Under the pieces are notes generated by a model, which saw only the letters and a program-made list of their open reading frames with translations, did no database searches and was not told where the DNA came from. The translations under genes were made by a program, and so were the position numbers. Positions 10,423-60,624 of a stretch of 64,000 nucleotides of DNA are shown one piece after another. The stretch comes from Podarcis liolepis. Its lineage: Eukaryota. Location of the stretch: the NCBI GenBank assembly GCA_965112155.1, contig OZ218099.1; one strand, written 5' to 3'. Each line of letters starts with the position of its first letter. Positions within the stretch are counted from its first letter, which is position 1.

Positions 10423-11627
10423 TACTCCCCTCTTCAAAACTGCACTTAAGTTGCACTTTGTACTATACTTCTATTCCCTACCCCCCTTTTCCTTCTTCGA
10501 GGGAAGCAGATTCCTCCGGTGGAGATCTGGTAGCTATGGAGCTCCTTCCCTCCCAGACATGACACACCTTTACCTAATCCCACTGACTGACGTTAAGGAA
10601 GCAGAGGTGAGCGGGGTTATGAGTCAGGACTTGGCACCACCAGCTACTGCTGGGAAAGAGTACTTGGTGCATGGGGCAGGATTTGAGCAGCTTCAAGCCT
10701 CTCTGTTCCTTGAAGATCGCCCTGAAGGAAGAGCTGGAATTAACTGCGCACACACAACTTCGCCTGGGGATACCATGCTTCTTGTCGGAAAGCATTTGCT
10801 GGCGCCTTAATCCCCCACTCTTTCAAGTACAGTCACTGTTTCGTTCCATCAATGGATGTGGAGGGAAGCAACGAGCAAGGCCTGGGAGGCGGCTTGCCTG
10901 GCTGTTGGATCCAGTCTCTATCTTCTTACATAACGGGCATACAGTATGGGGGCTACTCACTGTGCCACCACCCTCCGCCCAGCAGAATGCATTCGTAATT
11001 GCCAGTTTCCATCGCTGAGGCTATTCGCTCTCCCTTCTTCGAGGTGAGTGAGCTGTGCCCCATGTCCCCATGCGACGCAAACACCACCACCCTCTGGTGG
11101 TGACACATGCGTGATGCAGCTTGCAGCAGTGAAGGAAAGAGCATCCATTGACAACAACGTGGAGGGATGAGAGAGTGCCAGCTGGCCAACTGGGCCACTC
11201 CTTCCAAAAGACTTCCAAAACAAAAACCCCCAAAAAGCTATGCAGCAGAGTGCGATTGAGATGCCCATAGGCAAGGGAACATCCAAGATTCAGAGCCCCA
11301 TCTGAACAAAATTATCAGTTTCGGTTTCTCACTTTTCCAGTCTTAAAAGTTCAGTTTGCCCCTTTTCCACATTAGTTTACATTAAAAAAAGGGGAAGGGG
11401 GGAAGGTCCAGGCAAAAGATTGTTTGCAATTTTGTGTACATTTCACTGTAGATGTGCACGTTATATGTAAATTTACCTAACACACACATTTCTCCTGGCA
11501 ATTTTCCATAACACAATTCATTTTTGTACTCTAACATACACAATTTTGTGTGTATTTTTTTTTTTACTGGAGAAATGCATTGCAAAAACACTGAAGGAGG
11601 ATCAGCAGGCTTGGGGGGGGGGGGGGC

Positions 11628-12033
11628 TGAATCATAGAACTGTAGTGTTGGAAGGGACCCTGAGGATCATTTAGTCCAGGGGTCAGCAAACTTTTTCAGC
11701 AGTGAGCCAGTCCACTGTCCCTCAGACCTTGTGGGGAGCCAGACTATATTTTTGGGGGGAAAATGAACGAATGCCTATGCCCCACAAATAACCCAGAGAT
11801 GCATTTTAAATAAAAGCACACGTTCTAATAATGTAAAAACACGCTGATTCCCAGACTGTCCGCAAGCTGGATTTAGAAGGCAATTGGGCCGGATCCGGCC
11901 CGTGAGCCTTAGTTTGCCTACCCATGATTTAGTCCAACCCCCTGCAATGCAGGAATATGCCACTGTCCCATAGGGGGACTCGAACCTGCAACCTTGGTGT
12001 TATTAGCACCATACTCTAACCAACTGAGCTATC
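11628..12033 (-). mobile_element. tRNA-derived SINE with CR1-like tail (POM/Squam2-type), split by the hAT element
   Basis: Minus-strand head gatagctcagttggttagag...ggttcgagtcc (A and B boxes); tail ...ttctatgattc. Confidence 0.75.
11677..11926. mobile_element. Non-autonomous hAT element
   Basis: CAGGGGTCAGCAAAC...GTTTGCCTACCCATG ends; 8-bp TSD atttagtc. Confidence 0.88.
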
Positions 12034-25247: not shown

Positions 25248-26628
25248 GTGCATCTGTGAGGAAGTCTTGTAGCCTGCGGAGATCGGCGTAGCCACACTTG
25301 AATTGATCTAGGAGACTGATCTGGTCTCGCAGAGTATAGTACAAGTCCGTCAGTTGAGCGAGAGACCGCAGGGCATCCACAGTCTCAGAGTAGCGGGCTG
25401 GGGCCAAAGTGGAGCCAGACTCGGACAATGGCATGGGGGTTGGGGCAGAGAGCAGCGGAGATGCTGGAGGCGTAGCTCCAAGGACAGGCCCAGGGGGCAA
25501 TACAAGCTGCATTCCAGGCTGCGCACCAGCCCCCTCACCAGGCTGGTAACCAAGAGGACTGGGCCAAAGAATCCCAGGCTGACCAAGGTACCCAGCTTGG
25601 GCATCAGGAGAACCAGGATAGAACGGAGGGGGTCCGGGAAATCCAGCTTGTATCCATGGAATGACAGCGCCTCCAGGGAAGGCTTCACCAGGCTGGGCGC
25701 CAAGGACTCCAGGATAGGCTCCAGGATAGGCTCCGGCATAGGGTGCCAGGCCTCCAGGGTAGGCTGTTTCATCTCCAGGTGCGCCAGGCTGGGCCCCAGG
25801 TGCTCCAGGTTGAGCCCCAGGTGCCCCAGGCTGGGCTCCAGGTGCCCCAGGGTATGCCCCGGCTGCTCCAGGGTATGGAGCTTGGGCTCCAGGTGCACCA
25901 GGCTGGGCTCCAGGAGCCCCAGGATAGGCCCCAGGTGCTCCGGGATAGGGTGCTTGGGCTCCAGGGGCTCCGGGATAGGCCCCGGGTGCCCCAGGGTAGG
26001 GTGCTTGGGCTCCAGGAGCACCAGGCTGGGCTCCAGGTGCCCCAGGATAGGCCCCAGGTGCACCGGGATAAGCCCCAGGTGCCCCAGGGTAGGGTGCTTG
26101 GGCTCCAGGAGCACCAGGCTGGGCTCCAGGTGCCCCAGGATAGGCCCCAGGTGCACCGGGATAAGCCCCAGGTGCTCCAGGATAGGGTCCTTGGGCTCCA
26201 GGGGCTCCAGGATAGGCTCCAGGCGCACCGGGATAGGCCCCGGGTGCCCCAGGGTAGGGTGCTCCGGGATAGGCCCCGGGTGCCCCAGGATAGGGTGCTT
26301 GGGCTCCAGGGGCTCCGGGATAGGCCCCAGGTGCCCCAGGATAGGGTGCTTGGGCTCCAGGGGCTCCGGGATAGGCCCCAGGTGCCCCGGGATAGGGTGC
26401 CTGGGCCCCAGGAGCTCCTGGCTGGGTCCCTGGAGCACCAGCAACACCAGGCTGGCCTGGCTGAGCTCCAGGAATGCCTGCTGGAGCACTTCTTGGAGCC
26501 CCTGGTGCACCAGCCGGTGTTCCTTCTCTTCTGTGAGTGCCAGGCAAAGTTCCTGGAGATCCAGGAGTGGCTCTGCTTTCTGGAGAGGTGGCAGAATCAG
26601 TTGGAGAGTGTTGGACTGGACTTGTCAC
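25248..26628 (-). CDS. QRICH2: QRICH2 large low-complexity exon (Pro/Gly/Ala/Tyr repeats)
   Basis: ctag|GTG ACA acceptor, GCAC|gtatgt donor, 1381 nt, phase 0-1, within the 515-aa ORF. Confidence 0.88.
25775..26433 (-). repeat. Coding minisatellite of 21-nt ([14 protein letters not shown]) and 30-nt ([10 protein letters not shown]) units
   Basis: Direct tandem repeats in the large QRICH2 exon. Confidence 0.95.
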
Positions 26629-29600
26629 CTAGAAACATATAGAGAAGAGTGACAAAAGCAGGGGTGGCTTTAGCTCAGGGCATTATCGCAGGCATCTCAC
26701 ATCTTGCAGTTGACTTCATAAGAACATCTCATGTCCACTGTGTATCAGGAACACTACCACCACCTTCAACTGCAGGGCTGCACCAGAGCAAATCCAAGAT
26801 GGCGGCCAGCACCCATGCCACAACCCCTCAGCAAATCCAAGGGCGTTGTCACTTTGGAAGCAGGTCAACTGGTTTTGGATCATCCTTAATTCAAACTAAC
26901 AATACATGCTGCACAATCTGAGGTGTTGACTGGATTGCCCTTAGTTGGGTAAGGCCACAAGAAATGGCCTTTTGAAGTTTCCTAAGTGTCCAAGGACAGT
27001 GTGGTGCAACAGGTAAGATTGCTGGATTCAGATCTAGGAGGCCTTTGATAGGAAATGGCATTCTAAGTGTCACAAGGCGCTGCTGAAATTTGAATGATCC
27101 AAGTCCGCCCCAGTGTCGCTACTGAAAAGCTCATAAACCCTCCTTTGTATAGGAGCAGTGGCTGGGCAATTTCATTCATAAGCTTCAGAGCTTCTCCTTT
27201 GTCCACATTGGGAGTTAACTGTGGTTAACTCACTGATGAGAGGAAGATAATCTGCATGTGCTCCGAGGCAACCTTTCATTACTATTACTTGCCATGTTCA
27301 AGGGGTCTAGGCTGGTATTGAAAATAAGGACCAGAACTGAATGGCATAAACCAGTCCTTTTTCCTCAAATACTTGAATCCCTAGCCTGTATCCCTCTGGT
27401 TCTGCAGTTGTTAGCTTATGCTACCTCTGTCCAAGATCTACAGGGAAATTATGCAGGAATGCATAAGAGCCATCATACACTCAGTCAGAACTACTTTTTC
27501 CCCTGAAATATTATTGCTGTTCAGATCAAAAAGCAGAAACTGACACCTGATCCTGCACTTAATAAGAAAAAGGAAAAAAGCAGGCGCCCATGGATTACAG
27601 CTATTCTCCATCATGAAGACTGCTTTTAGACATAGAAACAGCCTGAAAAGTAACACTCTGCTTCACTAAATTATACCATGTTGACTGAGAGACTGGAAAG
27701 ACTCAGTCATGGAATCAGAGTACATATAAACCAAGAGGGAATATTTCACTGCAGTGATTTCCTTCTATTGAGATTCTTTTAAGTCTGGAGGTAAGAAACG
27801 GCTGGGTCCAGAGCCCAAAGCCTGGCCTCAAACCAATCATTAAGCCATGGAAAGTTGCTACAGTGAAGTGGTATCTTTTTTAGATCTGTACTTTGCACAT
27901 GCACAGATGATCTACAGTGATGAATCTATTGTGCCACTTTAAAACAGTTCATTATTTTGTGGAAACGGGCTATATATCCAAATGCAGGCATTTAACATGC
28001 ATGCAAGTTTTGCCCTAACTGGCCTTATGGGACACTAGCTGCTCTGTGACTCTATGGAAATGTGGAATTAATGATGCTTACGACATTTCTAAATGAGTGC
28101 TTTGGAGCTGCACTGTTTTAAATGTTCTTCAGGGGCCGAAACAATAGCCCATAGGTGTTCTCACATTATTGCTTAGGTGCTAAATTGCTTTTCTCTCTCT
28201 CAAACTCCTGCATGCCTTTGCTCTCAAGTGAAAGAAATACAAACTTGCATAGTCTTTATAACACTGCAACATGGTTATGCTCAGGACACAGATTTTTCTT
28301 CAAGAAACCCATCCAGGAAATGCAGTATGCACAAGAGAACCAAGTGCAAATAAAAACAACAAAGAGCCTTGTGACACCTTAATAACTAATAAATTTATTA
28401 TGGCACAAGCTTTTACGGACTAGAGTTCGCTTCATCAGACTCTTCATGGGGCAAGACGACCTAAGCATTTAACACCAATTATGGCATGACTACACTAGCT
28501 ACCAATTAGTTTCTGGGCTCAACTCTGATTTTGTTGAGTGCTGATTTTGACCTAATGAAGCCTTATGAAGCTAAAGACTCCAATACCTCTTGGACTGCCT
28601 CTTCGCACATGAACCTACCCGGACACAGCAATCATCAGAAAAACTTTGTTGTGTGCCTTCAACAAAGAGAGGTGCGGAGGGTGGCAACATGAGAATGGGC
28701 CTTATGAGAATGGTGGCTCCCCATGTGAGGAATGCTCTCCCCACACCTGATACCATCATTGTCTGCTCCAGGTTCCAGGCTAAAAACATACACAAGATAA
28801 AGACTGACCTTGACCAGTGGGGGAAAGCATTGTTTGTTGTTCTGCCTCAGGCAGAAAAATGTCTGGAGATTGCCTTGTGCAAACAGCTTTGTGCTTCTAA
28901 CATAGGACCCTTTCTAAACACTTACCTTCTTTTGGTGGCAGTGGGAGAATAAAGCACCCATGTCAGTCACACATTCATGTCAGCCATGGGATACAGTCAA
29001 AGGGGAGGGGGTAGAACTAGCATTCTTCAAGGGGATGGGTTGGTTTCTGAGGTTTTAGAAGTATAAGCGGCATGTGCTCAAGCACTGGAGAGTATAAGCA
29101 AAGTCAACCTCCTATGAGGAAAACAGAGATATCCTCCACCTCCCACACTGTCCCCAATTTAAAACCACGTGGATACAGGCCTCACCATGACGCACCAGAA
29201 AATGATGACATGGCCACCTTCCAATAGGCAATTACCAACTTCACAGAAAATACCCATATTGGGGTATAATATTTGCTATTTTTCAGCAAGTACGATTAGT
29301 TTTCTGAATGCTGTATGGACAAACAGGCTGCCAGGCTGAGATGATGTCACCAGGATGGATTAGTGATGCCTGCCAGGAAAACAGATAATGTCCAGAAAGA
29401 CCAATCTCTGAACACTTGTAGCTAGATTAACTTGTGATTTCCATCCTCATGTATCTGCGCATTTTTATGCTAAAAAAGTGGCATTTTTATGTCATGCATT
29501 CGGTGCTTCATTTTTTATTTTTTTTAAAGAGAGATGTTGGGGCTCAAGTCTGTTTGGAAACATCACTTTCTGTTCCGAAGGCTTTCCTTGCACCCCGCCC

Positions 29601-30225
29601 AACAATATTCCTGATGGTTGAAAATACTCTGCAGTTATTCAGTAGCAAGGGGAATGCACCCTGCATCTGGCTTAAGGGCACTTTCATTTAGCTTTACTTT
29701 TCGTATTCTGGGCTTGAAACTGTAGCTGAGCTGCTGGCAGATTCTGTGGCTGAGTCCTGGCAGAACAAATAAAGCCCTGTAGTATCTTCATCCAGCATCT
29801 GCCAAGATAGTGACCAGACAGATGGCAAGCAGTGGAGGTCAATGGAAAGGTCCAGAACAATCTATGTGAGCCATACACTAGCTCGTCATCAACTTTGTTG
29901 CATGCTTATTAAATACAAAAGGCAGAAAACGAAGCCCCACATTGGGCTGATCAGAGGCCACTGAAAATTAGCACAAAATAAATGTTACCCCCACCCCTGG
30001 AACTGGCCATAAGGTGATGAAGAAATGTGCTTCATGGTGCACAGATTGTACGTAGAAAACTCTTTTTGTACACAATAATATAGGTCTAAGTGAAGGGGAT
30101 AAATAGGACATGGAATTCAACATATAAAGGATGCATGCACTGTCTTGGTATTTTTCATGAAGAAAACGTTCATGTGCAAACCTTTTATCCTCCAATCTTC
30201 ATTTTGCTACACAAATCATACTCAC

Positions 30226-30339
30226 AGGAGATGGGCTCCTCTTCCCTTTCACAAGGACGTCCTCTAGAACGTCCCACCGCACCATATTGCTCATCTCCTC
30301 TGGGGAAGGAAACTGGCTCAGCCTCTTCTCTAAGTCTTT
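30226..30339 (-). CDS. QRICH2: QRICH2 coding exon 4 (KDLEKRLSQFPSPEEMSNMVRWDVLEDVLVKGKRSPSP)
   Basis: tgtag acceptor, gtgagt donor, 114 nt, phase 0-0; FPSPEE..V.WDVLED motif. Confidence 0.85.
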
Positions 30340-33014: not shown

Positions 33015-33985
33015 CAGTGGTACCTCAGGTTACATACACTTCAGGTTACATACGCTTCAGGTTACAGACTCTGCTAACCCAGAAATAGTGCTTCAGGTTA
33101 AGAACTTTGCTTCAGGATGAGAACAGAAATCGTGCTCCGGCGGCGCGACAGGAGCAGGAGGCCCCATTAGATAAAGATTGAGGTTGAATCCTGACAAGAC
33201 AGAAGTACTGTTTTGGGGGGACAGGCGGGTGTGGGGGATTTCCTGGTCCTGAATGGGGTAACTGTGCCCCTGAAGGACCAGGTGCGCAGCCTGGGAGTCA
33301 TTTTGGACTCACAGCTGTCCATGGAGGCACAGGTTAATTCTGTGTCCAGGGCAGCTGTTTACCAGCTCCACCTGGTACGCAGGCTAAGACCCTACCTGCC
33401 CGTGGACTGTCTCACCAGAGTGGTGCATGCTCTAGTTATCTCCCGCTTGGACTACTGCAACGTGCTCTACCTTTGAAGGTGACCCGGAAACTGCAATTAA
33501 TCCAGAATGCGGCAGCTAGACTGGTGACTGGGAGTGGCCACCGGGACCACATAACACCGGTTCTGAGAGATCTGCATTGGCTCCCAGTACGTTTCCGAGC
33601 ACAATTAAAAGTGTTGGTGCTGACCTTTAAAGCCCTAAACGGCCTCAGTCCTGAATACCTGAAGGAGCGTCTCCACCCCCATCGTTCAGCCCGCACACTG
33701 AGATCCAGCACCGAGGGCCTTCTGCCGGTTCCCTCATTGCGAGAAGTAAGGTTACAGGGAACCAGGCAGAGGGCCTTCTCGGTAGTGGCGCCCACCCTGT
33801 GGAACACCCTCCCTTCAGATGTGAAGGAAATAAGTAGCTATCCTATCTTTAAAAGACATCTGAAGGAAGCCCTGTTCAGGGTATTTTTTAATATTTAACG
33901 CTGTATTGTTTTTAATACTTAATTGGGAGCTGCCCAGAATGGCTGGGGAAACTCAGCCAGATGGGCGGGGTTTAAATAATAAATT

Positions 33986-37696: not shown

Positions 37697-38473
37697 CTTG
37701 TTGATGCCCTCTTCGTTGGCTTCAACTTTCTTCTGCAACTGCATCGCTTGCCATAGATCGGCCACAGAGCCACTCCTGGCTTTATCCATCAAGTCGGTAC
37801 CAGAAGGCAGCTTCTCTAGGCCAGACATTTGCTGTTCAAACCCTTTGACCCGCTTTCCCAACCCCTGCACTTTCCCCTGGACTCCCTGCACTTGATCTTG
37901 CATTCCTTGGACCTGATCTTCCACCCCTTGCACCTGATCTGCCATCCCTTGGAGGTTAGCCTGCAGCGCGAACATTTTATTTTCCAAGTCGTCAAGGCGA
38001 GATTCTATGTCTTTGTCTGAAACCCCCTTTTCCTTCCTGGGCCTGCCTTCTTTGCCTTCCTTGCCCTCCAGGCCTTCTTTGCCTTCCTTGCCCTCCAGGC
38101 CTTCTTTGCCTTCCTTGCCCTCCAGGCCTTCCTTGCCTTCCTTGCCTTCCTTGCCCTTCAAGCCTTCCTTGCCTGCCCTGCCTTCCTTGCCTGCCCTGCC
38201 TTCCTGGCCCTCCTTGCCTGCCCTGCCATCCTTACCCTTCAGTAACTCTTCATCGGACAGTATCTCCCCAACCCCCGTCTCAATAGCCACCGGCATGTCT
38301 GGCTTGGGTGGCGGGCCCCGATCCATCTTGACCTCCGTCATGGCATCCTGGATTTTGAGGTACCTGAGGATGGCATGGAGGAGGGTGTGGAGGGCATTGA
38401 AATTGACATGGCCAACTTCGGGAGTCCCTATGGAGATGTCCGCCAACTCGTACAAGGTGACTTTCAGAGACAT
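37697..38473 (-). CDS. QRICH2: QRICH2 first coding exon (259 codons)
   Basis: ATG at 38473 gives MSLKVTLYELADISIGTPEVGHVNFNALHTLLHAIL, matching the QRICH2 long-isoform N-terminal motif (ELADLAIGTPEVGAVNFTALHTL). Ends EANEEGINK|gtatgt, phase 0. A pyrimidine tract plus cag suggests the exon begins at 38519. Confidence 0.9.
37859..37951 (-). repeat. Coding 21-nt heptad repeat (QGMADQV QGVEDQV QGMQDQV QGVQGKV QGL)
   Basis: Seen in translation and DNA periodicity. Confidence 0.85.
38039..38236 (-). repeat. Coding 9-nt tandem repeat giving 22 Gly-X-Y triplets (GKE/GLE/GRA)
   Basis: (ccttccttg)-type repeat on the + strand; translation GKD GRA GKE ... GKE GRP. Confidence 0.95.
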
Positions 38474-41548: not shown

Positions 41549-42239
41549 TTTTTTTTTTTATAAAATTTTTATTGGTTTTGCAACATTTTTAAGAAAAACA
41601 AACAAACATTAAAAATGACAAACATACACGTATAGTTTCAAACATATTTTCATAAACCTCTTTTCTTGGACTTCCCCATACCCCCCCTCTCTGCATCCCA
41701 ATGTCCGTAGTTCAACTAGCAACTCCCAATTGTTACTTTCCAATCTCAATCATCTTAGTCCTCTTTTATAGTCTAACCTTATATCCCTGTACCCCTTTGT
41801 CTCTGAAAACCACGACATTTTAGCATTCATTAAGTTTATAGTAGTCCTTAAGGTAGCTTTTAAATTTTCTCCATTCTTCTTCCACCGTCTCTTTTCGTTG
41901 GTCACGGATTCTGCCTGTCATCTCGGCCAGTGTCATATAGTCCATCACTTTCATCTGCCATTCTTCCAAAGTGGGTAAATCTTGTGTCTTCCAATACTTT
42001 GCGATGAGTATTCTTGCTGCTGTTGTGGCATACATGAAAAAAGCTCTATCTTTCTTTGTCACCAGTTGGCCGACAATGCCCAAGAGAAAGGCCTCTGGTT
42101 TTTTAGGAAAGGTACATTTAAGTACCTTTTTCATTTCATTATAGATCGTTTCCCAGAAGGCCTTAATCTTCGGGCATGTCCACCAAAGGTGATAAAAGGT
42201 ACCTTCAGTCTCTTTACACTTCCAACATTTGTTATCGGG
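41549..42239 (-). mobile_element. 5'-truncated L1/Tx1-type LINE (ORF2 C-terminus with CCHC-like region, 3' UTR, polyA)
   Basis: CWKCKETEGTFYHLWWTCPK...AARILIAKYWK...EEW motifs; polyT at 41547; 18-bp TSD ctgcttctcctaagtgtt (41531-41548, 42240-42257). Confidence 0.9.
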
Positions 42240-42973
42240 CTGCTTCTCCTAAGTGTTGGGCTAGATAGCGGTGTTCTACTTCTGGCCTGACTGCATTGCA
42301 GTGGAGGTGAAATGATATTCTATATATAGTTTGTAATATACCCAGGGACCACTTTTAAAGGTGCACTGCACGGATGGGCACTGTAATGCTCTCAGATCTG
42401 AGATACAAACAGAACAAGAAACATATGGTTAAAGGAGTGTATGTCCATGTTGGTTGTGTGTGTGTGTGTGTGCATGTGTGTGAGAGAGAAAGGGAGGGAG
42501 GGAGGTGGTCTGGATAGTGCCCAAGTGCCCTTCTCTAAACAAAGTAGGAAATTCAAGACCCACTTACTGTGCAATGAAATCAGGGGAGCCTTACATTAGG
42601 TATGGTAGGATGCTGCAGCTATATATTTTTTTGTATATGTGAGTGAAGCTAAATAGAAAAATCAGGATTCATTTTGGTCCATATGTGAATCCCAGTAGAT
42701 AAAACTGAATTCAGGACAAGAATCACAGACTCATGACTGTAAATGAAACAAATTGACTGGTTTGTTGATATACAATGCTCAGAACAAGAATAGCAGTAAA
42801 TGTTTTAAGTTCAAATAACTGCGCAAATACATAGTTCTTGAACTACACAAGCTCTTCCGTGTAATTGACAAGCCAATGCAACAACTTATACGATCATTTA
42901 AACAATAATTTATCATCAAACCCTTGTCTGCATCTCCCTGCCTAACCTCCTCCAGTCCATCTAGTTTATGGGC

Positions 42974-49100: not shown

Positions 49101-52034
49101 CTCTGTTCTTACAACCTCAAGTGTGAATTAGAATTGCCACTTCACCCTTAAGGCACTTAAACCGTGCCTGGGTGTGCCTGAATATCTGCTTGCATGGCTG
49201 GTGAAATGTTGCTGTTTTAGCATCCTGTTGCCATGGCTATTGGGACCATTTATGGTTTGGCGTCAACTCTTAGAATGTGGCTGTTGATAATTAGTTAACA
49301 AATGGGTTGTTTAGTCCATAGCAGGTTTTTGTTTTCTCATCTTTCAATGCAAGTATTTGAACGCACTCTCAAGATCCTATAATCCAGGTGTAGCCAATGG
49401 AATGCACTCAATAAGTTGCTAGACACCAACCTCCACCCATTACAGCTATTCTAACAAAATCTGAAGGGTATATGTTGGCTGCCCCTGTGTATTCTCTATT
49501 GTAATGCAGTAAACAAAAAAAAAATACTCCACGGTAGTAAAGCTTCTGACAGCAATTGGCTGAGCAGCTATGACACCATGGAGTTTTAATTAGTGTTCTA
49601 ACTGCTGAGGTAATAAAAGCTGACTTATTGAAAGCAAGCCCAGTGCTCAGGCCAGGCAACAGCTTGAGACATGAAATTTCCAGAACAGAACATAGTATAC
49701 AGTATCTGTCTTCAGTTTGACTGGGAAAAGGTCCTCTGCAAGAGGCTGAGATAAGAAGAGCTGTTATGAGCCAAGGACCTAAGTGGTTTGGCTGCTACAG
49801 AGCGTGCTAAAAGGATGAGTCGCACATCCTTTCTAAGCTTCTGGTGCTTCATGTCCACAGTGGCAGTGGGTTTCTGGAATTCACACACCACCCCCCCACT
49901 GCTTTAGTCATTACACTGTAGGAGGAGCCTGTATAATCTTGTAATGGTCAGAGCCACTCTCAGTAGGAAGCTGAGGGGCCGTGAGCCGAGACAAAGGTTT
50001 ACTACAGGTTCAATCATAGACTGAAGCAAAGAGCTGGTGGAGTTGATAAAGTGGGACTTGGGGAAACCCCCTCACATGGTGATTTGTTAAAATAACAAGG
50101 TGGCCAGGAGAGGGGGTTTTGGAAGCTGAGAAGAACTATGGCCAGAGGTGTAGAGTTTCTTAGACCTTCAATCCCTTTATGTCCACTCTCAGGAATAAAT
50201 ATTTCACCAGGTGCAGTTTTTCTCCTGTTACACCATCACACGTGGTAAGGAAAAAGCTACCTTGATCTAAATCTTCCTTCAGCTGAACTGTTAAAAAGAA
50301 ATAGGGTCTGGTCCTAGAAAATGTAAGGGGACAACTGGGCCCAAAGCGGGGAAGCAGGGCTAAATGGATTGGACCAGGCATAGCCACGGCAGAGCAAAGG
50401 ACTGGGTCATGTTCCAGGGGCTCCCTCAAAAGGAACTGCCAGATTAGTATGGTGGGCAGCATCAGGCTTGCTTCCCTTTTCTCCATCTCTATGATAGCTA
50501 GTAACACTGAGTGGGCTTTTGAGTAGCAGCCACCAGGCAGGCAAGCAGTGGCTGTGGCTTGCACCTAGTCATCTCTCATCCCAATTGCCCACTCAGAGTG
50601 GAACGACAGCCTTAGGCCTCTGGTAGTTGGCAAATGCAACATTCTTGCTTTTAATCAAACAGTTATCAGAGTAAATACAATTAACACTAGCTGCTTTTGT
50701 GAGCTGTCTTGAAGGGAGTGTTTTGTTACTTAGCAGACCTTAAAGAAGTTGGTAATTTGTCATATAAGTATGCTATTCATTCTTACTAATGACCAAGCGT
50801 TCTATTGCTTAGATCAGGAATGGGGAACTTAGGGCCCTCCAGGTGTTCCTGGACTACAGCTTCATCAACACCAGCCAGCATGGCTCAATGATCAGGGAGG
50901 CTGGGAGTCATTGGACCTCAACAACTGAAAGGTACAAAGAAAAGGTTATGCTAGACAGTTGCAGGAATCTTACAGGTCAAACACTAGCACCCTAGGAGAA
51001 CACAGCACAAGGGGTAGGCAGTTTTACTGTTAGCTGGAGGCTGCCATATAATGGGACTGTCTCAAACAGATTTGAATTTTGCATACCTTCTCAGTAAAAT
51101 GTTTTAAGAAACACTGCACTGGGCAGCAGGCAGAATCACCCTATATGTTAATAGATAGCACTATAGAATTATCTCTTAGGGACGCAACAGATAAAAAACT
51201 GTTCTAGATTTACCATTCTGCATCAAGAGTACAGCTGTGTAAAACACACAGGAAGGTATTACATGGATGTTTCTATACTTTCTGGCCAATGTGCTTTAAT
51301 TTTTGGCCATGAGGGAACACAGAATACCACCAGAAGCAAATCCCATTAGACCGTACTTAATCTTACAAATTTACTCACAAACTGTAGCAAGAGTCTTAAA
51401 ATGTTATAGACTCTTGTTACATGGCCAGCTAGGCAGAACTGGAAGCTAGGGCTCTATAGAGGAGGAGAGGTAGCACATTCTAGTTTCTACCATGACTTTG
51501 GAACCCCTTAGCATCATGCTATGTTATTGCTGATAAAATTACCTAGACTGCAATGAAATGTACCTATGTGTAGATGGTTTCACAAGAGGAAGCTCTGCTG
51601 CACCCATATTAAGAATGGCTCCAAAGGCAGTAAGAGGGCATTGCACATTCCAGCAGTGCAAGAAGAATCACACCTCCTTCCAAACAGCTTGAAGACATGC
51701 ATGACTGAGAATTTATGAAGTCAAATCTCTGTAAGCAACTGAATACACAAGATCTGCTGAACAAGAACAGAAGGCCACCACCAGTACCAGTTTTTAAAAC
51801 AGACTGCAGTGCCTATTTGCACCCTGATCTAGCTGGCTCTGAGGACTGTTGGCCAGTGAAATTGAAATACCTGGGCCTCACGGCATCAGTCTCTTGACAC
51901 CCAGACCCATAATAATGCTTCCCCCAACCAAATAGCATCAACTTTATGGCACTGCTGATTCATGCATATTTCCTTGCACATTTCTTTTCTCCCTTCTATT
52001 TAAGGAATGAGGATGTGGGAATGATAAAGAGAAT

Positions 52035-52193
52035 CTAATCATCCATGGTAATGTTGCGGAAGAGGTAAGCCATGGATTCCCCATTGTGGATTCGGCGGAT
52101 GGCTTCAGAGAGGATCAAACTGATATCCACAGTCTTTATCTTGGGACACTGCAGTTTCTGCACTTCATGAGGAACTGTATTGGTGACCACCAC
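52035..52193 (-). CDS. PRPSAP1: PRPSAP1 last coding exon ([52 protein letters not shown])
   Basis: ctag acceptor, TAG stop at 52035-52037. Confidence 0.97.
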
Positions 52194-60489: not shown

Positions 60490-60624
60490 NNNNNNNNNNN
60501 NNNNNNNNNNNNNNNNNNNNNNNNNNNNNNNNNNNNNNNNNNNNNNNNNNNNNNNNNNNNNNNNNNNNNNNNNNNNNNNNNNNNNNNNNNNNNNNNNNNN
60601 NNNNNNNNNNNNNNNNNNNNNNNN
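60490..60624. other. Assembly gap (135 N) in a PRPSAP1 intron
   Basis: Run of N. Confidence 1.

Follow-up and report, generated by a model that had tools for sequence, protein, structure and literature searches.

Pseudoexons, intronic segments of 50-200 nucleotides (nt) flanked by a good acceptor and a good donor, may outnumber real exons tenfold (PMC1935003). The sperm hexokinase HK1S is made from a germ-cell promoter with alternative N-terminal exons, and its testis N-terminus is myristoylated at Gly2, putatively palmitoylated at Cys5 and relocates the protein to a membrane (PMC4736023). Calflagin/FCaBP and RP2 also combine Gly2 with a nearby Cys (PMC6678300). Here we compare with these systems an exon-like segment, unit B, in intron 4 of the sperm-tail gene QRICH2 (glutamine-rich protein 2) on the minus strand of a 64,000-nt stretch of Podarcis liolepis DNA (assembly GCA_965112155.1, contig OZ218099.1), referred to below as the window. 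Unit B ends in a 12-codon Met-Gly frame, MGALFSHCHQKK, which the initial annotation had proposed as the start of a membrane-anchored QRICH2 isoform. We think it rather probable that unit B is a cryptic exon that splicing normally passes over and that would bring in a stop codon if it were included; the 12-codon myristoylation-type frame is likely a chance reading without a protein product. The caveat that accompanied the proposal, that the segment could be a poison exon or chance, is more likely to be right than the isoform. Probabilities attached to readings in this text are judgements made from the counts, not computed values.

Unit B as a probable cryptic exon

Unit B resembles pseudoexons and poison exons in being a 50-200 nt intronic segment with a good acceptor and a good donor (PMC1935003) and in carrying in-frame stops; as in a poison exon, a premature stop lies more than about 55 nt before a later junction. 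It differs from a typical pseudoexon in that its sites are stronger than any other pair in the QRICH2 introns and in that two units stand in tandem. The positions given in the initial annotation were reproduced throughout: an ATG in strong Kozak context (28961-28959, GACATGG), 12 codons running to an exon end at 28926 (AAG/GTAAGT), a phase 0 donor that fits the acceptor at 26628, which is the real exon-5 acceptor, a GT-AG stretch of 74 nt upstream (29185-29112), and upstream ATGs and in-frame stops (29057 and 28982) within the 186 nt of 29111-28926. The second unit, unit A, was found through an acceptor at 29369 that the initial annotation does not mention, and it lies directly upstream of the 74-nt stretch, in which a branch-point consensus 5' of the pyrimidine tract is not clear. 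A further Met-Gly frame begins within unit A at ATG 29257; it is 24 codons long, is in phase 0 and has Glu as residue 6. When joined to exon 4, unit A meets stops at 29285, 29243 and 29234.

In the reading that we favour, transcription would begin near 39 kb at a promoter in a CpG island; the island itself is observed, and its use is suggested by annotated isoforms. The spliceosome would then join exon 4 (30226) with exon 5 (26628), the junction seen in all lacertid models that contain the two exons. If unit B were included after exon 4, the reading frame would be kept and the TAA at codon 19 would stop translation. The general rule is that nonsense-mediated decay follows when a stop lies more than about 50-55 nt upstream of a later junction. 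Inclusion of unit B would be expected to trigger such decay, since its TAA (29057) lies 129 nt before the end of the unit, at least 15 introns before the end of the gene, and since degradation of a bovine QRICH2 RNA that carries a premature stop provides a precedent (PMC8900305). Unit A, if included, would have the same outcome, its codon 29 being TGA. Ribosomes translating an RNA of this kind would start in exon 1, which lies some 9.5 kb upstream in the gene, and would not be expected to initiate at 28961.

Annotated proteins are consistent with direct joining of exons 4 and 5. We collected 172 QRICH2-type proteins, seven of them unnamed; the lacertid set, which is counted without the unnamed ones, has 19 proteins from five species and covers P. 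raffonei X1-X4 and P. muralis X1-X3. The 12-codon peptide is found in 0/19 lacertid QRICH2 proteins and 0/172 collected proteins, and the unit A peptide in none of the collected set. Exon-4 residues stand ahead of the exon-5 start in 16 of the 19 lacertid proteins, the other three being without that start. Among 84 squamate proteins, 69 run from exon 4 into exon 5, one runs from exon 1 into exon 5, and 14 have no recognisable exon-5 start, these last being truncated, wrong-frame or divergent models. The single exception to the exon-4 junction is Crotalus tigris isoform X7, in which exons 2-4 are skipped; annotation can therefore catch a minor junction into the exon-5 acceptor. A search for the exon-5 start in proteins of 92-2000 residues gave eight matches among 323 candidates, all joined to exon 4 and none with the peptide, and the same search at 28-91 residues gave no candidate. 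Intron 4, translated in every frame, matches no collected protein (best tblastn E 0.099). A scan of cluster representatives was uninformative, as it matched two unrelated-looking repeat proteins and missed QRICH2 itself. Absence from protein models cannot show that a unit is not included, because protein sets miss exons that carry stops or are untranslated.

Two origins for the units were considered and rejected. Tandem duplication of A and B finds no support, as random segments reach their global alignment score in 81/991 cases, their local score in 258/991 and the score of the exon bodies in 363/1000; the acceptors of the two units have an 11-nt run in common, though the units are not duplicates. 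A lost ancestral exon is also rejected, as far as proteins show, since squamate and turtle isoforms run directly from the exon-4 motif into the repeat exon. Comparison of intron 4 with the window gave no repeat copy across 28926-29369, and Pfam gave no family for the frame of unit A or for unit B translated across its stops.

Splice-site strength and chance

Donor scores come from a simple, approximate vertebrate matrix, and acceptor scores from a model fitted to the real acceptors of QRICH2. The census comprised 17 QRICH2 sense introns (33,342 nt), with intron 18 and later introns set aside, and chance was simulated with an order-4 Markov model in sets of 17 introns. The full pattern was defined as a purine at -3, Met-Gly-x3-Ser/Thr, an open in-phase frame and a donor; its thresholds were chosen after the site had been seen, and the pattern, pair and chain tests given below share one donor.

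The donor at 28926, with 8.25, outscores each of the 17 real donors in exons 1-17, the best of which reaches 8.05, and falls just short of that of exon 19 (8.8). The exact string MAGGTAAGT is not rare, as it occurs twice in the window against 1.29 expected, a number reached in 36 of 100 shuffles, and the second match is the real exon-19 donor (300-308). The full pattern appears in 29/6149 simulated sets when the donor scores at least 6, in 223/6149 at the median real donor and in 516/6149 at the lower quartile. Unit B combines an acceptor of 8.0 with its donor of 8.25, where real acceptors and donors have medians near 5.7 and 3.6, respectively; this pair (16.2 together) ranks first in the 17 sense introns, level with the best of 18 real exons, and its score is reached in 259/3446 simulated intron sets. 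Unit A is the second-ranked acceptor-donor pair in the sense introns and adjoins the first.

The candidate pattern exceeds ordinary intron background. A genome-wide scan would nevertheless regularly yield such sites, because the rate of the pattern is 0.08-4% per gene of this intron length. Elsewhere in the window, strong pairs without an open frame are found at 62089-61887 on the minus strand (15.2) and at 52005-52064 on the plus strand (13.6). The former falls between PRPSAP1-like exons (63223-63157 and 59960-59786) and is likely another pseudoexon. On both strands, the only other match to a myristoylation-type start is at 10946 on the plus strand, antisense to QRICH2, which serves as a chance control: it opens a 32-codon Met-Gly frame with a donor of 7.3 and is without Ser/Thr at position 6.

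Several observations weigh against a silent cryptic exon. The donor at 28926 is the only near-perfect one in the 33,342 nt of sense intron, and with a donor of that strength the full pattern is seen in just 5/6149 simulated sets. Met-Gly frames that precede donors of median strength number four against 0.95 expected. The pair score of unit B (16.2) stands well clear of the next sense pair (11.5) and the best antisense pair (11.7), and a chain of the A+B kind arises in 50/2813 simulations. Strong unused splice sites on the sense strand are usually eroded by selection, so that this one would be less likely to have persisted. Of 628 segments of 500 nt, a single one, 29600-29101, combines a GC box, a CCAAT motif and both cyclic AMP response element (CRE)-type motifs, in a motif set assembled post hoc. 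The negative result from annotation is itself weakened in that P. lilfordi was annotated without testis (PMC10214862) and in that P. muralis testis RNA came from one male (bioRxiv 10.1101/481895).

Alternative readings of units A and B

A regulated poison exon maintained by selection, made of unit B with or without unit A and with the 12 codons incidental, is the alternative that survives best, and we still regard it as unlikely. Its role, to which we give the same low standing, would be to direct QRICH2 RNA to decay where the CpG-island promoter fires and the protein is unwanted. Splice sites as strong as those of the best real exon, and stops well upstream of later junctions, are what such an exon would have, and it would not show in protein databases. 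Annotation of the P. lilfordi isoforms drew on non-gonadal tissues, which is compatible with somatic transcription (PMC10214862), and the bovine case noted above shows that a QRICH2 RNA with a premature stop can be degraded (PMC8900305). Against this, simulated introns reach the same pair score in the 259/3446 sets already given.

Next comes the isoform, an improbable reading in our estimate, in which an intron-4 spermatid promoter would drive a transcript with a first coding exon running to 28926, and QRICH2 would be translated from ATG 28961 with a predicted myristoylated Gly2. We doubt to the same degree that the protein would possibly be palmitoylated at Cys8, with its repeat region, coiled coil and DUF4795 tethered to the flagellar membrane. 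No more probable is the version in which the intron-4 promoter was gained in lacertids and a two-exon leader packed with upstream open reading frames would delay translation of lipid-anchored QRICH2. The predicted isoform would have about 1105 residues; in P. muralis X1 numbering the first 355, which include the conserved N-terminus and the collagen-like repeat, would be lost and 1093 kept.

Beyond the rarity of the strict pattern, the motif itself speaks for the isoform. The predicted N-terminus fits the PROSITE-type myristoylation rule: its residues 2-20 include two Lys, a single Cys (Cys8) and nothing acidic. If translated, the peptide would probably be myristoylated. The MGxxxS consensus invoked in the initial annotation is borne out, as the candidate fits the MGXXXS/T form (PMC4736023). 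The phase of the frame matches exon 5, and an in-frame stop lies just 5' of the ATG, as for a true start. Precedents exist in sperm HK1S (PMC4736023) and in dual-acylated ciliary proteins (PMC6678300), and alternative first exons are common (PMC13082882). As to the parallel drawn with the dual acylation of calflagins and the flagellar membrane, calflagin and RP2 carry Gly2 followed by Cys3 (PMC6678300).

These precedents differ from the candidate in several respects. HK1S is an annotated form whose Met-Gly is conserved among mammals and whose Gly2 was tested with a G2A mutant (PMC4736023), whereas the candidate is a sequence pattern and has its Cys at position 8, not at 5 as in HK1S or at 3 as in calflagin and RP2. 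Calflagin/FCaBP and RP2 are moreover unrelated proteins in which the acylated N-terminus is the main form (PMC6678300). The second membrane signal of the initial annotation is thus present as to the Cys, while its basic part amounts to only two Lys within residues 2-20. Stable anchoring would rest on Cys8, because two Lys do not make a polybasic patch. In the literature on QRICH2 and myristoylation, no title or abstract reports an acylated QRICH2; among the matches listed for QRICH2 isoforms, no acylated form appears in a title or the start of an abstract. Literature on QRICH2 and lizards gave passing mentions only, and QRICH2 is unmentioned in PMC12860763. Human QRICH2 lies along the sperm flagellum, where it co-localises with alpha-tubulin and axonemal tubulin, which counts against the isoform, and its loss leads to malformed tails (PMC6347614). 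A recombinant N-terminal part of QRICH2 promotes tubulin polymerisation in vitro (PMC11006759).

The leader also counts against the isoform. A working leader is expected to be depleted in ATGs, and the A+B leader has eight in 334 nt against 6.1 expected at intron background, which is no depletion. Three of the upstream ATGs lie at most 26 nt from ATG 28961, and their short frames stop so close to it (table) that reinitiation is disfavoured. ATGs 29257 and 29188 have strong context and share the candidate's frame after splicing, but translation from either would end at the TAA at 29057. The isoform would consequently need a transcription start within about 12 nt of ATG 28961, or leaky scanning past several ATGs, and a start so close would leave the strong acceptor and unit A unexplained. 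In one test system greater distance helped reinitiation, and the optimum varies (PMC10275272).

Promoter context is mixed. The CRE-like motifs of the initial annotation are indeed present (TGACG at 29188-29192 and TGATGTCA at 29342-29349), but they occur at chance level and inside unit A; the window contains 11 CRE sites at one mismatch, where 14.15 are expected. There is no CpG island at 28.8-29.7 kb: the CpG observed/expected ratio there is 0.16-0.32, the median for the window is 0.18, and the island near 39 kb has 1.22. Low CpG content is frequent in testis promoters, however, and the post hoc combination of motifs in 29600-29101 is in favour of a promoter. The absence of the peptide from all 19 lacertid proteins, the pattern rate per gene and the antisense look-alike at 10946 add to the case against the isoform.

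The least probable reading takes A and B as real exons of a separate intron-4 RNA that is non-coding or poorly translated, or has unit A alone spliced to exon 5 with a 24-residue start at ATG 29257: the adjacency of the two top-ranked pairs, the 50/2813 chain result, the A at -3, G at +4 and phase 0 of ATG 29257, and the GC box and CCAAT motifs upstream speak for it, and against it stand the absence of the unit A peptide from the collected proteins, the Glu at position 6, which misfits the usual motif, the presence in unit A of an acceptor that a first exon does not need, and the post hoc nature of all these tests.

The QRICH2 locus and its biology

The host gene was identified as QRICH2 of a Podarcis-type locus by DUF4795 and by orthology to annotated QRICH2. 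The domain (PF16043) was scored on the matching P. muralis protein with an E of 2.3e-81. Exon 9 (17.3-17.6 kb, minus strand) is 100% identical to entries from P. raffonei, P. lilfordi and P. muralis; its identity to those from Zootoca and Lacerta is 96-98%. Spliced mapping reproduced 17/17 junctions of P. muralis isoform X1, each with 17/17 residues; junction matching covered these 17, and exons 18-19 were placed by hand. The N-terminus of QRICH2 is conserved from lizards to mammals, and its description in the initial annotation as collagen-like is upheld by a match of the exon 1 repeat to Pfam PF01391 (E 1.8e-9). For the C-terminal part, the PDB holds no solved relative. The upstream neighbour on the same strand is PRPSAP1 (E 7.2e-31).

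Features of QRICH2 intron 4 and its surroundings in the window, in order of transcription
Feature	Position	Strand	Remarks
QRICH2 first coding exon	37697..38473	minus	conserved N-terminus, collagen-like repeat, coiled coil
QRICH2 exon	31885-31781	minus	spliced mapping
QRICH2 exon	31063-30992	minus	spliced mapping
QRICH2 exon 4	30226..30339	minus	weak donor CCT/GTGAGT, score 2.6
QRICH2 intron 4	26629..30225	minus	3597 nt, phase 0; junction as in P. muralis X1, 17/17 residues
Single GC box	29595..29600	minus	upstream of unit A; motif set chosen after the fact
CCAAT-type 5-mers	29405, 29262, 29225, 29158	minus	motif set chosen after the fact
Exon-like unit A	29186..29369	minus	184 nt; acceptor 6.5 + donor 5.0; both CRE-like motifs inside
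Intron-like 74-nt stretch, GTGAGG...CTCATAG	29112..29185	minus	G-runs; donor score 5.0
Exon-like unit B	28926..29111	minus	186 nt (3n), phase 0 at both ends; codons 19 (29057) and 44 (28982) are in-frame stops
Three out-of-frame upstream ATGs (28987, 28978, 28974)	28963..28987	minus	short frames end 5 nt / 1 nt before ATG 28961
12-codon frame MGALFSHCHQKK	28926..28961	minus	myristoylation-type motif, ATG in GACATGG; in-frame stop upstream at 28982
Consensus donor AAG/GTAAGT	28920..28928	minus	one of two exact MAGGTAAGT matches in the window
QRICH2 exon 5	25248..26628	minus	1381 nt, Gly-Pro-Ala-Tyr repeat exon, acceptor 26628

Some further observations concern the gene and the rest of the window. 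Isoforms of P. lilfordi and L. agilis take their initial Met from a small CpG-island exon upstream of the first coding exon (about 39083-39048, minus strand), and this exon is spliced to the final part of the first coding exon. In the window the corresponding codon is ACG, so translation of such an RNA would likely begin at the next Met, as in P. raffonei X4. In exon 5, a second frame is open for 424 codons (26624-25350, minus strand) and is used by some other lizards' gene models; its openness likely results from repeats in which T is scarce at codon position 2 (32 of 423 codons). Frames at 33338-33898 and 41820-42248 resemble protein fragments of retroelements that we take to be of the long interspersed nuclear element (LINE) type. 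An assembly gap of 135 N occupies 60490-60624. The only Rfam match, a weak tRNA one far from units A and B at 11972-12032 (minus strand, 33.8 bits), to which ARAGORN gives no call, is likely a tRNA-derived repeat.

On any reading, the element in intron 4 belongs to a known class, namely a pseudoexon or poison exon (PMC1935003) or an acylating first exon like that of HK1S (PMC4736023). On the most likely reading it has little significance, as cryptic exons are common. If the isoform were true, it would be the first lipid-anchored form of QRICH2, an unreported lizard membrane form of a gene on which humans, mice and cattle depend to assemble the sperm tail. Such a form would be made in the manner of HK1S, and it would provide a datable case of a targeting and acylation signal arising from intron sequence.

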